Notes under the pieces: model-generated
The model's database searches: none
Told to the model about the DNA's origin: nothing
The model's input: only the letters and a program-made list of their open reading frames with translations
Program-made: the position numbers and the translations under genes
In this document: piece after piece, positions 11,101 through 17,600 of the stretch
How positions within the stretch are numbered: position 1 is the stretch's first letter
Layout of the letters: each line of letters begins with the position of its first letter
From: Candidatus Avispirillum sp.
Lineage (GTDB): Bacteria > Bacillota > Clostridia > Oscillospirales > CAG-272
Assembly (NCBI GenBank): GCA_045638055.1
Contig: JAZUAR010000017.1
Coordinates: forward strand, 1 to 43,703
Length of the DNA: 43,703 nucleotides
Direction: 5' to 3'

Positions 11101-11577
11101 TTAAACTGCGCAGTACAGATAAGAGACAAACAAGGAGCACACTAAAAAAGGGATCATTGATGCCACTGCGATCACATACTGCTTTACAAAATTGCTTTCT
11201 CTCTTTCCTCGCAGGATTATCACAACTACCCTCACAATCTCAAAATAAAGAAAGCTGATAAGAGTGCCCATTACGGAAAATGACATCAGCGCCGTTATCA
11301 GATACATTCCCGCAATAACTGCGATTTCAAGAATCAAGGGGTAAACGGGGATTCTCACCTTACAGGACCTGCATCTGCCCTTACAGGCAATATAGGACAC
11401 AACAGGCAGCTGCAACAGCGGCGGTATCCTTGCACCGCAGCTGTCGCAAGCACATCCCGAAGCCAAAACAGGCAAGGTATTGCCCTTTGTCAGTCGCAGG
11501 ATATTCGTTGTTGCCAGCCCGCCGATATGAAAATAAATTATAAAAAGACCGATTGCTATAATAATGTGATCAGTCAT
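11101..11577 (-). CDS. Membrane protein consisting only of a prepilin-peptidase N-terminal (4-Cys) domain; no aspartyl-protease domain
   Basis: GCACDSCGARIPPLLQLPVVSYIACKGRCRSCKVRIPVYPLILE matches the CxxC...NIP..S....G.C..C...I...YP pattern of the peptidase A24 N-terminal domain. The following 80 residues are hydrophobic and contain no Asp at all. RBS is AAGAGGTGA. Confidence 0.75.
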   Translation of the reverse strand: MTDHIIIAIGLFIIYFHIGGLATTNILRLTKGNTLPVLASGCACDSCGARIPPLLQLPVVSYIACKGRCRSCKVRIPVYPLILEIAVIAGMYLITALMSFSVMGTLISFLYFEIVRVVVIILRGKRESNFVKQYVIAVASMIPFLVCSLFVSYLYCAV

Positions 11578-11600
11578 TACAAAATCACCTCTTTGATTTT

Positions 11601-11630
11601 AAATGGGCGGGAGTTTTCTCCCGCCCATTT
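11601..11630 (-). terminator. 13-bp-stem hairpin after the giant gene (weak or partial terminator)
   Basis: aaatgggcgggag-tttt-ctcccgcccattt. Only a poor U-tract follows on the minus strand, so read-through into 11577 is likely. Confidence 0.45.
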
Positions 11631-11637
11631 TCAGTGA

Positions 11638-14600
11638 TTATTTTTCACCGTTCTTTTTTCTCTTGTAAACTACAAGGAATACAATAAGACCTGCAAGAAC
11701 GACTACGCCTGCAATAGAGCCGTAGAAGAGAGGCTTATTTGTGTAGTAACGAACGAAGAAATCGGTTGTTACGTAGAAGTCCTCTACCTGCTCAGCATTT
11801 GCGGGAATATTTGCTTCGGAAATCTTTTCACCGTTTCCTGCCGCGTCAACCGCATATACTACAAGCTTATGGGAAGCGGTTGATTCACCGGAGATATCGA
11901 AGCTGAAGTTACCACCGTTCTTGATGATCTTCTCAAGCTCCTCGCCCTCCCATGTCTTGTATGTATTACCGTCAAGCTCAGCGATAACCTTTGTGAGCTT
12001 AAGGTTATCCTTAACGTTCATGGTAACTGTCATGTTATCCAAAGCGTAAGTTGTATTGCTTTCGAGGTTTTCGATGTTGATAATGGGAAGAGTGCTGTCA
12101 ACACCGAAGTTGATTGCTGTATCCTTTGTATCCTGGTCGTTCTTTGCCTCGTTGCCTGCCTTATCGTCAGACTCAACTGTGAGGCTGTATACACCGTCAG
12201 CATCGAAGTTTGCTGCAAATACGGTATATGTATACTGATACCACTGGCCGTTGCCGCCCTCAATATCGATCTTATAGTCTGCGCCTTCCTCAAGAACCTT
12301 GGTTTCGCCGTCCTTGAAAAGAATTACCTTGATATTGGAAAGCTCATCGGCATTGGTCTCTGTGATAACTACATCGATAGGCTCCTTAACGTAAGTGCCG
12401 TTCAGTGCCTCTGCTGCCTCGCTGAGTGCGTATGTGGAGCCGAAACGGTTAACAGAGAATACGATAGTCTTTTCTGTTGTGTTGCCGGCCTTATCTGTAA
12501 GGGATGCTGTCAATGTATAGATATCGTCAATTTCCTTTTCCTTCGCAAAGTTGTTGAATGTGAAGGTGCGGCCGTTATGAATGTCCGCATAGGAGCCGTC
12601 AAGCTCAACAGCCTTACGGTTTGCGCCTGTGAGGGTGATAGTTACCTCGCCTGCGTCATAGTTTGTATCGGAGTAGGAGATAACGGGAATAACGTCGCCG
12701 TTATTGGCAGACTTATCAGCAATGCCTGTGATATCGAGAGTGGGCATTGTAGTATCTACAAAGAATGTCTCCTCTGTGTAATCAGCAGACTCGTTACCTG
12801 CCTTATCAACTACAGCGATATCAAAGGTATACTTTGCATCCTTGCCGTAGTAGATCGTTGCTGTATGAGTATCACCGTTGGATGTCCATGCGCTGACGGT
12901 AGGCATTGCAGCTGTAGCACCATCATCTGTTGCTGTATGAGTAACAGTTACTCTCTCAGCATTGAAGTTATGCTCTGTGATAACAACAGTTGCAGTACGA
13001 ACTGCCTTGTAGTAGTTGCCGTTCAATGCGCTGTTATTATCGTATCTTACTGCAATAACAGGATCGATATGGTCGATAGTAAATGCGTTGGAAGCAACTG
13101 TGCCGTTTGCGAATGTTTCGCCTGCACAAGCATTTTCCGCAAGGTCGGTGTAATTGATATCAAACTCATAATCACCGTCTGCAGTATACTTGATCGTTGC
13201 TGTCCATGTTGTATCGTCACAGTTTCCTGTTCCTGCCTTCTTTGTGAAGGCGGAAATTACGGGGATCACACCGTCTGTATTTGTGATTGTTACCACAACG
13301 TCCTCAGCCTTGAAGTTACGCTCTGTAATAACAACTGTAGCAGTTCTGTCATCCTTGAAGAATGTATCGCTGTCTGCAGCGTTATTGTCGTAGGAAACAA
13401 GGATCTCGGGAGCAGTGATATCGATCTTGATATCGCCTGCAGCTGTTGTTGTCTTTCTCTCGTTGCCTGCGTTATCGATCGCTGTGATCTCTACGATAAC
13501 GTTGTTGCTGTTAAACTTCTCAGAATCGATAGTGATATTACCGCTCCAGGAGCTTACGAGCTTATCTGCATCAAATACTGCGCCTGCAGTCTTTGTTGCA
13601 AGGTCGAGAAGGATTCCTTCCTCAACTGCATCTGTATCTGTTGTGTAGATCTTATATGTGATCTTATTAATACCGGAGTAGTGACCGTTATCAGAAGCCG
13701 CGGCACCTGTATACTTGGGGTCAACAACCTTAAGGTCTACGTTAACGTCGCCCTTGTACATTCCGTTGGCGTTTGAGGGGCCGGGAATGATATCAATTTC
13801 GGGGGCGTGTGTTTCACCTACAGGCTTCTGGTCGTCTACTACAATGCCTGTAGATCTGATTATAGAGACATTGCCGGCTCTGTCCTCAGCTCTGAAGTAA
13901 ATTACAAACTTTTCGCTGGGATTAACAACGATACCTGTTTCATCGTTGTAATCTGTCCATTCGCCGTTTTCGTCATAATCACTGATATCTGCAACCTTCT
14001 GATACTTGAGTGTCTCAAGACCGCTGATGTCGCAGTTTGCGGAGAGCTTAACTGTAACTGCAGCACCGTAGAACTTATTGAATGCATGGTCTGTCATTAC
14101 ACCGTTAACAGAAACGTCTGCAATCTTGATGTTCATTGCTGTAGGAGCTGTCTTATCGATAGTAAACTCAACAGGCTCAAAATCCTCTGCTGCATTACCT
14201 GCAAGGTCCTTATAATCAATATCAAATGTGTAATGTGCCTCTGTGCTGAAGGGGATAACGATTGTGTGGATATCACCGTTGTCGTCCCAGTTCTCGTTAT
14301 TTGTCATGTAGCCAACGTAATCGAACACCTGAGCCTGAGCGCTTTCGGCAATTACGTTTACTACGATATCCTTAGCATCAAAGTTATGCTCATCAACAGT
14401 AATTGTTGCCTCTCTGTCAGCTCTGTACTGATTCTCGTTTTCATGATCGGGCTCAGTGAACTCAACCTTCATTTCGGGAGCGATCTTATCGATGGTGAAC
14501 TTATCCATCTCATAAGAATCATAAACATTGAGGGACTTATCTGTATACTTGATATTAAATGTGTAGTCTGCATTTTCATTGAATTCAACGGTTGCCTTGT

Positions 14601-17600
14601 AGTAGTCGCCGTCTCTTTCAAAGGCAGGCATAATATCTGTGTAGGTGTACTTAGACTCATCATTAAGCTGCTTACCTACTGTGATGATAAGATAATTGTG
14701 ATCCTGAGCTACGGGAGTACCTTCTTCATCATTCTTCATAACGGGAGTATAAAGATTATCCTTGAAGAAGTTGTCTGCGCTGATTTTGATTGTTGCTGTT
14801 CTGTCAGCATCATAATACTCGCCGTTCTTTACTTCGTTGTTATCGTATGTAACGATGATCTCGGAGATCACGTTATCAACTACGATACACTTTTCGTCTG
14901 TAAAGGTATCGCTTGTATTGTTGCTCTTATCAGTTGCTGTGAAGGAAACGTAGCCACGGAACTGCTCGGGAATCTTGAATGTTGCAGATGCCTTCTTTGC
15001 GCCATCCTCAAATGTGATTTCGCTGTTGGGAATTACAACATCGGATTTGCCTGCATCGTCCTTATGGCCATCCTCACTTACAGTGTAGGAGTATGTGAAG
15101 TAGTCGATACCTGCAGTTTCATCATATGCTGTGATGGTTACTTCCATCTCAGAGTTGTAGAAGCCGAAGGTAATAGCCTCGAGAATCGTATCGAGGAGAG
15201 ATGCGCTGTAGGAGATCTCAGCACCCTCTTCGAAGAAGGGAGCAACGTTATCAAGGCAGAATACGCTTTCCTCAGTTTCAGCTGCGTTATCTGCAAGGTC
15301 ATTATAGTTAAGCTTGATAGCGTAGTTCGCATCAGCCTCTTCCTTAGCGAGAGGGTAGGAAGCCTTATGAACGTCGCCCTCGGATGTCCAGTTGGAGGGA
15401 GTCTTGAAATATTCAACGATTGCCTCGATATCATCAACCTCAACATCTGCATTTGCAGCATTCTTGCCGAAGAATTCGGAGAAATCAAGCTCTTCTGCAT
15501 TGAAGTTATGCTCTGTTACTGTGATGATAAGCTGGCGGGAGCCCTTGAAATAACCCTTGTTTGCCTCAGACTCAACAGCATCTGTATCATCATAGCTGAT
15601 TTCAACAGAGGGATCTGTGTTATCGATAGTGAATGCTGTGGGAGCAACGGACTCACCGTAGTCTACAGAAGCATTCTCATTAAGGGAGTAGTCGAAGAAT
15701 ACTACATCAAATGTGTAATCGGCATCATCCTCAAATGTGTATGTTGCCTCATAAGCATCGCCAACCTTAGTGAATTCAAGATTAACGACAGTTTTTGTAT
15801 AATCATCCTCGTTGCCAACACGCTTGCCTACTGTAATAGTAAGATACTGTACCTCTGTGCCGGGGATGAGATTATAAAGATCATCCTTGAAGAAGTTTTC
15901 TTCATCGATTGTGATAGTTGCAGTTCTGCTGCCCTGGAAGTAAGAGTCATGGAATGCAGTGTTGTTATCAAAGGAAACAGAGATAACAGGCTTAAAATCA
16001 TCAACAACAAGTGTCTTATCGCCAACGATAGTTGTCTTGAAGCCTGCTGCATCAACTGCAGTCATTGTGATCTTGCTTCTTGAAAGATTTGCGGGGATCT
16101 CGAAGCTTACCTCTGCTATTTCGTTGTTCTCGCCGCTGAATGTAAGCTTATCCTTTGTAACAGTTACGATTTCGCCTTCACCGATGCGGTACTCAAGATG
16201 ATCGATCTTGGATACAAGGTCGGTAGCTGTAAGTGTTACTGTAGCAGATGACTTATAGAAGCCAAAGCTGATATTCTCAAGAATAATATCAATAACGGAT
16301 GAGGAGTATGTAATCGCAAGGTCTGTGGGGTATGTCTTATCGATGTAAATATCCTCAACAGCAATTGCCTCACTGATGTATCCTGTAGCCTCTTCAATCA
16401 GATATACATCTCCGACTGTGTTCTTGCCTTCGGGAGCAACTGTGATGATATCCTTCCACTCTGCATCAAACTGAGCGGAGCCGGAAATCTTGTAGCCCTC
16501 TGCGGGTGTAATTGAAACTGTGTTTGTATACCAGCCGCTTGCAGGACGCTCGTCAACTGCAACCATGCTGCTGAAATCGTTTGTAAGAACCTTAACTACA
16601 GCCTCTGCTGTGATGTTCTCATAGTTTTCGCCGCCGTCAAGAGTAGCAACAACTGTCATCTCACCCTTCTTGCCGGATGCGAATGCGATCTTGCCCTCAT
16701 TTTCCTCGGATACGATCACACCAAGGTCCCCGTCAGCGATCTCATAGGTAACAGCACCCTCAGACTGGCCGCCCTTAGCAACAACTGTGAGCTCCTTTGT
16801 ACCGTACTGAACAGTGTACTCAGCCTGCTCGAATGCGAAATCGCTCTGAGCAGCCTTGATCGTCTTGATTGTGTAAACAGCTACAGCATCCTTATAGTTG
16901 CTGTCGCCTGTGCGTGTAGCCTTAACAGTAACCTCACCGCCTGCCTTGAGAACAGTGATCATACCGTTTTCATCAACGGATACGTATTCCGCACCCTCAA
17001 CTACCTCATATGTGATCTCGCCATCAGTCTGACCGCCGTCAGCCTTGTTTTCAAGTGTGCCCTTATAAGCGAGGTCCTCGGGCTCCTTGATCTCAAACTC
17101 GAATCCTTCCTGCTCTGCCTTTGCAACATATACGTTGAAGGGAATAACAGCAGAGGGAGCCTTATCAACCGCTACATCCTTATCGTTGTAGTTGTTCTTG
17201 ATAGCCTTAACCTCAACAGTGTAGGAGCCTGCCTCGGTTACTGTGGGAACAGTATCTGTCCACTCGCCGTCATCAAGCTTGAACTGAAGAGTATAGTCGC
17301 CCTTATCTGTAATGATAACCGCATCCTGCGCAGAGCCGTTGTATACGCCCTCAAGACCCTCAACCTTAAGGTCGCCGAGATCAAGGTCGCCAAGCTCGAT
17401 TTCAGATGTAACAGTATGCTCGAACACCTTGTAGTTGGAGCCTCTGTCAACTGTTACGGTTACCTCATAGCTACCTGCATTAACAGCTGTTGCAGATTCG
17501 CTTTCCTCGCCGTTGACCTTGTATGTAACAATGTCACCCTCCTGAACACCCTCGAGTGTTACGAGAGGAAGCTCTGTGCCGTCATACACATTTGCGGTTT

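Follow-up and report, generated by a model that had tools for sequence, protein, structure and literature searches.

A stand-alone, aspartate-less counterpart of the PilD N-terminal half linked to Tad pilus islands of gut Clostridia: a candidate pilin N-methylase

The window, by which we mean the whole stretch of 43,703 nucleotides analyzed here, carries on its minus strand a set of Tad pilus genes, a threonine-phosphorylation cassette, a giant surface protein gene and a small membrane protein gene. Pfam matches identify TadZ (34763-36283), CpaF (33506-34753), a TadB-like protein (32707-33549), TadC (31823-32692), a DUF5702/TadG-like protein (27159-30731) and a TadE-like protein (25190-26458), while a candidate Flp pilin (31555-31758; ...KDESG/EANIIAIIL) and a TadE/F-like pseudopilin (30736-31470) were recognized by reading their N-termini, where class III leader cleavage sites are predicted. 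Further along the same strand lie a Tad-type prepilin peptidase of 227 aa (24495-25178; PF01478, E 9e-12), a TseJ-like DUF6382-FHA protein that marks the cassette (21675-23192; PF19909 3e-20, FHA 9.5e-13), a PP2C phosphatase (20846-21613; PP2C_2 1.6e-9) and a Ser/Thr kinase (19123-20826; Pkinase 1.2e-48). The giant gene (11638-18039) encodes a 2133-aa Ig-repeat surface protein with Big_13, Big_3 and MBG matches, a Sec-type leader and a C-terminal transmembrane anchor, with no prepilin leader. Directly downstream of it, an ORF at 11101-11577 (ATG at 11577, stop at 11101) encodes a 158-aa protein, here called the orphan, whose ribosome binding site AGAGGTG (11586-11592) stands 7 nt ahead of the ATG. 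A perfect 13-bp GC-rich hairpin on the minus strand (11601-11630; dG -28.6 kcal/mol, z -6.2) separates this site from the stop codon of the giant gene at 11638, and is likely a terminator or attenuator that reduces read-through into the orphan gene; a simple terminator scan does not report it because its U tract is short.

An earlier sequence-only reading had assigned the orphan to the four-Cys N-terminal domain of A24 prepilin peptidases, and profile searches bear this out. Pfam A24_N_bact (PF06750 / IPR010627) matches residues 18-94 with E 6.5e-13 (49 bits against a cut-off of 23), covering profile positions 6-80 of 84, and the zinc-finger cysteines are C44-x-x-C47 and, 21 residues on, C69-x-x-C72, with additional cysteines inside the domain (C42 and C65) and in the last helix (C147 and C156). 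Searched against the peptidase model as that reading had proposed, the orphan gives no match to Peptidase_A24 (PF01478 / IPR000045) even at E <= 1; no NCBIfam model fits it, and the source databases leave its family unnamed apart from one JGI label, 'PulO-like'. The claim that it lacks a catalytic Asp is likewise confirmed, as its two Asp residues stand at positions 3 and 45 and none follows the A24_N domain, and a protein of this predicted sequence cannot be an aspartyl protease. The Tad peptidase of the window is also as had been described, with the first catalytic Asp in KVD94FHEKKIPN, the second motif as GVGVGD160, two scattered cysteines but no CxxC, and Peptidase_A24 as its only Pfam match. 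It is of the TadV/CpaA/FppA kind, the Tad (type IVc) peptidases that lack a methylation domain (PMC10191384), while the orphan has the converse architecture, a methylase module without a peptidase. When all six frames of the MAG (2.06 Mb, 86% complete) were searched, each domain was found exactly once, A24_N in the orphan (50.6 bits) and Peptidase_A24 at 24495-25178. At its N-terminus the peptidase is extended by 82 residues that hold two predicted helices and a short basic loop and lack a zinc finger, and the 225-235-aa peptidase form with such an extension recurs in the islands of other genomes.

An AlphaFold2 model built with 116 relatives is compact and confident (pLDDT 93.7, pTM 0.85), and places helices at residues 2-28, 79-97, 102-123 and 130-157, with the four-Cys finger in a small domain (29-78) between the first two. 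On this model the orphan is a four-helix membrane protein, as compared with the eight transmembrane helices of a type IV prepilin peptidase. Basic residues concentrate in the loops 29-78 and 123-132, and the positive-inside rule would accordingly place both the zinc finger and the TM3-TM4 loop on the cytoplasmic side, the arrangement of PilD. Searches of the PDB, by sequence profile and by Foldseek with the model, returned only chance zinc-finger matches and no PilD structure.

Alignment of the family with nine canonical PilDs, and of its profile with full-length PilDs, which match colinearly to about residue 145, indicates that the orphan is homologous to and colinear with the first four helices of the bifunctional MEROPS A24A enzymes PilD/XcpA of Pseudomonas aeruginosa and GspO/PulO/ComC, across TM1, the C4 zinc finger, TM2, TM3 and TM4. 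Shared with them are the predicted topology, the CxxC-X21-CxxC spacing, the Gly-plus-basic pair that precedes the third Cys, and R28, P58 and E84, which have equivalents in all nine PilDs. The four-Cys pattern is invariant in the 116 relatives and holds in 49-52 of 52 representatives at 50% identity; Gly67 is kept in 116/116 and 51/52, respectively, and K or R at position 68 in 111/116 and 47/52. All of the features that published work on PilD links to methylation are thus retained. The features of the peptidase are not. The column of the first catalytic Asp falls in the loop R123-G124-K125, with K125 in place of the Asp itself and K or R at this position in 113 of the 116 relatives, and the orphan terminates one helix past this column, ahead of the GxGD helix, meaning that the last four helices of PilD are missing. 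None of the 52 representatives has a GxGD motif, and 32 have no Asp at all beyond residue 95. The orphan family also differs from PilD in being encoded apart from any peptidase domain and in having invariant residues of its own that are absent in PilDs, namely T23/T24 in helix 1, Q56, and the pair E113 and R/K116 in helix 3.

A stand-alone N-terminal half of this kind might be the remnant of a disrupted full-length pilD, a possibility that the sequence-only reading had named, beside a non-significant domain match, as an outcome that would undo its proposal. The domain match is significant, as shown above. Colinearity with the 5' half of pilD fits such an origin; the relatives, however, do not. 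A search of 5.8 billion proteins found 223 family clusters when grouped at a threshold of 90% identity, or about 50 with the threshold set to 50%, and the 120 clusters listed of the 223 are nearly all 155-161 aa long, carry PF06750 alone and are 54-72% identical. An exhaustive profile search matched about 50 representatives (50% identity) end to end, with PilDs entering from about E 1e-12. Divergence within the family reaches 25-30% identity, and 21 columns are invariant among 116 family sequences. The homologues are full-length proteins of 155-165 aa with a conserved C-terminus rather than 5' fragments of broken pilD genes, and a tree of the N-terminal region groups 49 of the 52 short proteins in a single, moderately supported clade (92/82) from which 28 of 29 PilDs are excluded. 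In the window, the orphan stop is followed after 66 bp by the next gene, which leaves too little space for a decayed peptidase half, and no peptidase-coding remnant is found there. With hundreds of relatives of the same length, their family-specific invariant residues and a compact, confident model, we reject the pseudogene reading, and from these comparisons the orphan is best described as a member of a conserved family of peptidase-dead PilD paralogues.

Members of the family are rare and patchily distributed. Scanning 185,579 species for the sequence pattern, each represented by a single genome, confirmed 26 loci, all in MAGs of gut or rumen Clostridia save one bin labelled Gastranaerophilales, with carriers labelled Acutalibacteraceae, Oscillospiraceae, Ruminococcus, Faecousia, Lachnospiraceae and Faecalibacterium; every orphan relative comes from a MAG. 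Within the window's own genus, only two of 32 species genomes have a member, and the remaining members of the order sample have ordinary PilDs only. Among the 150 best representative matches, there are no natural fusions to pilins. Carriage as phage or plasmid cargo was considered and rejected, as INPHARED, PLSDB and IMG/VR contain no orphan relatives, only ordinary PilDs. One match in a record named Microcystis phage MaAM05 is a 342-aa protein containing A24_N; it lies side by side with ispH, trpS and a FliA-type sigma factor gene (MW495066.1, 8979-12332), and the content of this record is more bacterial-looking than phage-like.

To describe the genomic setting, the ORFs of 30 orphan loci were clustered and their recurrent neighbors annotated. 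Many of these loci share an island of gut Clostridia that looks mobile. It combines a Tad pilus with an FHA/kinase/phosphatase cassette, to which a T7SS-like unit or a giant surface protein is often added. The orphan lies inside or at the end of the island in 17 of the 30 loci and adjoins island-type genes in two more, where the neighbor is a giant-protein homologue or a DUF4176 gene (L038 and L004). Directly upstream stands a giant Ig-repeat gene in six loci (the window, L025, L027, L028, L039 and L047), a PMT_2 or GT2 glycosyltransferase gene in four (L041, L008, L049 and L036, two of which have the giant gene or the peptidase at a greater distance upstream), and a DUF4176 or WXG100 gene, preceded by LXG-like and DUF6382-FHA genes, in five (L029, L031, L034, L044 and L046). 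In single loci, the orphan lies between an FHA gene and PP2C/kinase genes (L048) or is convergent with a kinase gene (L040). The remaining 11 loci have unrelated or undetermined neighbors, including genes for an ECF sigma factor, a ClpB-like protein, an FGGY kinase and MerR/IS200. Two of the glycosyltransferase loci (L041, 1159-5994, and L036, 2027-5962) have two to three PMT_2-type (protein O-mannosyltransferase-like) and GT2 genes between the giant or peptidase genes and the orphan, which suggests that the giant protein or the pilins are glycosylated. Directly after the orphan, a gene for a Macro-domain protein (ADP-ribose-binding/hydrolase) is seen in L008 (978-1499), L028 (6490-7008) and L049 (742-1263), and in L008 and L049 it overlaps the orphan stop codon.

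The orphan is usually the last gene of its island, either behind a hairpin or translationally coupled to the preceding gene. A strong hairpin (-25 to -38 kcal/mol) precedes the orphan ribosome binding site in all six loci with a giant gene upstream and in L046, where the orphan follows a WXG100 gene. The hairpins of these seven loci are unrelated in sequence, and the arrangement looks like a conserved expression step-down from a structural gene to a small downstream gene. In L041, L031 and L049, the orphan start is instead only 4-16 nt from the upstream stop. One island, that of genome G069, was followed over its whole length; here the orphan is the final gene of a same-strand island of about 32 kb (contig C86, 8000-39900; L051 1-19001 and L052 1-12900). 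This island begins with kinase, PP2C, CpaF, TadZ, TadB, TadC and a 225-aa A24 peptidase without an N domain, continues with a WG-repeat protein, Flg_new proteins with DUF5702 and TadE among them, an EssC-like FHA/FtsK ATPase and two WXG100 genes, and ends, after further genes, with DUF6382-FHA, LXG-like, DUF4176 and the orphan. A complete Tad set and a T7SS-like machine look to be co-transcribed in this genome.

The position immediately behind the giant gene had led to the proposal that the orphan is a maturation or anchoring factor dedicated to the giant Ig-repeat protein. It finds some backing in the six loci with this order, which come from different families and each have a hairpin between the two genes, and in L041, where glycosyltransferase genes come after a giant gene and lead on to the orphan. 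The proposal fits only these 6 of 30 loci, however, and elsewhere the upstream gene is a glycosyltransferase (PMT_2), DUF4176 or WXG100 gene. The G069 orphan ends its island without any giant gene, a congener (G022) has the giant gene and peptidase 13 kb apart with no orphan and a convergent LuxR-type gene after the giant gene, and the giant protein itself has the Sec-type leader and C-terminal anchor described above in place of a prepilin leader. A dedicated role of this sort is in our view very unlikely.

At the level of whole genomes, 21 carriers were compared with 120 other genomes of the order that are at least 80% complete. An A24 peptidase (PF01478) is present in 15/21 carriers vs 42/120 of the background (Fisher p 0.003) and DUF6382 in 15/21 vs 8/120 (Fisher p 3e-10), values that overstate the linkage, given that the relatives are not independent and that the carriers span several families where the background samples one order. 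The orphan and a peptidase share a contig in 9 of the 21 carriers, at distances of 5-22 kb (coordinates checked), and DUF6382 in carriers usually lies 2-9 kb from a 225-235-aa peptidase. Peptidases of orphan islands lack the N domain and are about 225-230 aa long. Conversely, eight further genomes that have the island (peptidase or cassette) all lack the orphan. In five carrier assemblies, A24 peptidase and T2SSF platform are both missing, though these are MAGs of unknown or modest completeness that may simply not cover the genes, and in two of the five the contig ends in or near a giant gene. The orphan is best seen as an optional accessory of such islands and not a core part.

These observations bear on the suggestion that the orphan and the peptidase are the two parts of a split PilD-like enzyme. 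Comparison lends it real backing, in that the orphan recurs at the edge of islands that carry a peptidase without the N domain and keeps the residues linked to methylation. It is not an obligate half, given the islands that do without it and the five carriers without type IV filament parts, and when three 225-229-aa peptidases were compared with the orphan family by hhalign, the probability was 0.2, meaning that no homology between them is detectable by profile. For the same reason, complementary degeneration, in which peptidase and orphan would be two decayed copies of one PilD, is unsupported.

The solitary copies among unrelated genes and the five assemblies without filament parts could also mean that the orphan is a zinc-finger membrane protein unrelated to type IV filaments, hitch-hiking on the islands while methylating or binding another substrate close to the membrane, or serving as an immunity-type protein against a T7SS toxin. 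In L029, L031 and L034, it follows an LXG-like gene and a DUF4176 gene, a position often taken by immunity genes. Unlike immunity proteins, though, the orphan stays 55-70% identical while the C-termini of the upstream 'toxins' and the neighboring genes vary, which makes an immunity role unlikely, and hitch-hiking has difficulty explaining a 10-fold genome-level enrichment with the island and the operon-type coupling of L041, L031 and L049. Taken as a whole, this explanation seems to us distinctly improbable, if less so than a dedicated giant-protein factor.

We tentatively propose that the orphan is a peptidase-dead PilD half that acts in trans as a pilin N-methylase on Tad islands, a role we consider plausible while rating its chances as somewhat below even. 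The Tad peptidase would remove the leader from Flp/TadE-type pilins, the orphan would then bind the pilin N-terminus so uncovered, on the inner side of the membrane, and, using SAM, it would N-methylate this N-terminus in trans, thereby supplying the second PilD activity that Tad peptidases are missing. The membrane-embedded, family-specific pair of Glu113 and Arg/Lys116 may be its own docking site for the N-terminal amine and the Glu of the pilin. In PilD, the zinc held by the cysteines is required for SAM-dependent methylation and not for cleavage (PMC3584216), and, according to the account of Pepe and Lory 1998 given there, methylation also depends in part on the Gly and the basic residue adjoining the third Cys; these are the features that the orphan family keeps. 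Pilus assembly in Pseudomonas proceeds without N-methylation (PMC3584216), and since the modification is dispensable there, a patchy, optional gene is what would be expected of a methylase. Reviewers nevertheless caution that a methylation role for IPR010627 'remains to be formally demonstrated' (PMC4471445). Further points count against a methylase: the candidate Flp pilin of the window would start with Glu, which is not a classic methyl-acceptor residue, 11 of the 30 loci are solitary, and in the five carrier assemblies noted above both an A24 peptidase and T2SSF are missing. To our knowledge, N-methylation has not been reported for Tad pilins, which are regarded as unmethylated, and no SAM-binding motif has been defined for the A24_N domain.

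The main rival is a non-catalytic pseudo-enzyme that binds class III N-termini or the peptidase, and that would serve as a holding chaperone or adaptor, restrain piliation, or connect the Tad/T7SS machines with the threonine-phosphorylation cassette. Replacement of the catalytic Asp and loss of half of the enzyme agree with such a role, and the family's own invariant residues (T23/T24, Q56, E113 and R/K116) suggest a new binding surface. The L048 orphan sits within an FHA-PP2C-kinase block, an optional and patchy occurrence would suit a regulator, and the strongest genome-level association is with DUF6382 and not with A24 peptidases generally. Against it, the methylation-linked residues are kept at 96-100% in a family that diverges to 25-30% identity, which would be needless for a mere binder, and neither homology (by hhalign) nor a predicted interface was found that would connect the orphan family to the locus peptidase. 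We regard a pseudo-enzyme as rather unlikely, albeit deserving of more weight than the hitch-hiking and giant-protein explanations.

Returning to the methylase proposal, the orphan could be the first pilin N-methyltransferase known to stand alone, in which nature has separated the two PilD activities and which would act in trans on Tad (type IVc) pilins; we put this forward with slightly more reserve than the proposal itself. In a bolder variant, the orphan would be a 'receptor', dead as a peptidase, that recognizes prepilin-type N-termini and couples both Tad pili and a T7SS-like machine to a threonine-phosphorylation switch. The A24_N domain and its presumed activity are known, and in the literature searched we found no description of a stand-alone A24_N protein; what is new relative to that literature is the stand-alone, four-helix, Asp-less form tied to Tad/T7SS/kinase islands. 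Tad loci adjoin one T7SS subtype (Microlife 2024, PMC11217815), and the orphan islands share cassette genes with the T7SSe/T7SSf loci described there, which have a kinase, a PPM phosphatase and DUF6382-FHA TseJ/TsfJ proteins; the likeness extends in G069 to an EssC-like ATPase and WXG100 genes. That paper mentions no A24-type or zinc-finger membrane component, with zero occurrences of 'prepilin', 'peptidase', 'A24' and 'zinc'. The orphan is an undescribed accessory component of Tad/T7SS/kinase islands in abundant uncultured gut Clostridia. Although pilin N-methylation has been known for over 40 years, what it is for continues to be called a mystery (PMC10191384), partly because methylation by PilD is inseparable from the essential peptidase. 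A protein consisting of the methylase half only, present or absent beside similar Tad islands, would offer a clean genetic and biochemical handle on pilin methylation, and would reveal whether the zinc-finger module suffices for catalysis.

Finally, a second, longer family of peptidase-dead PilD-like proteins (P0189, P0195, P0205 and P0238; 248-261 aa) was noted in AT-rich genomes. These proteins keep the zinc finger but lack GxGD; they carry the motif GYNNT(L/M)P, and their helix-1 motif GG(L/V)(A/S)TT resembles the GGLATT of the orphans.
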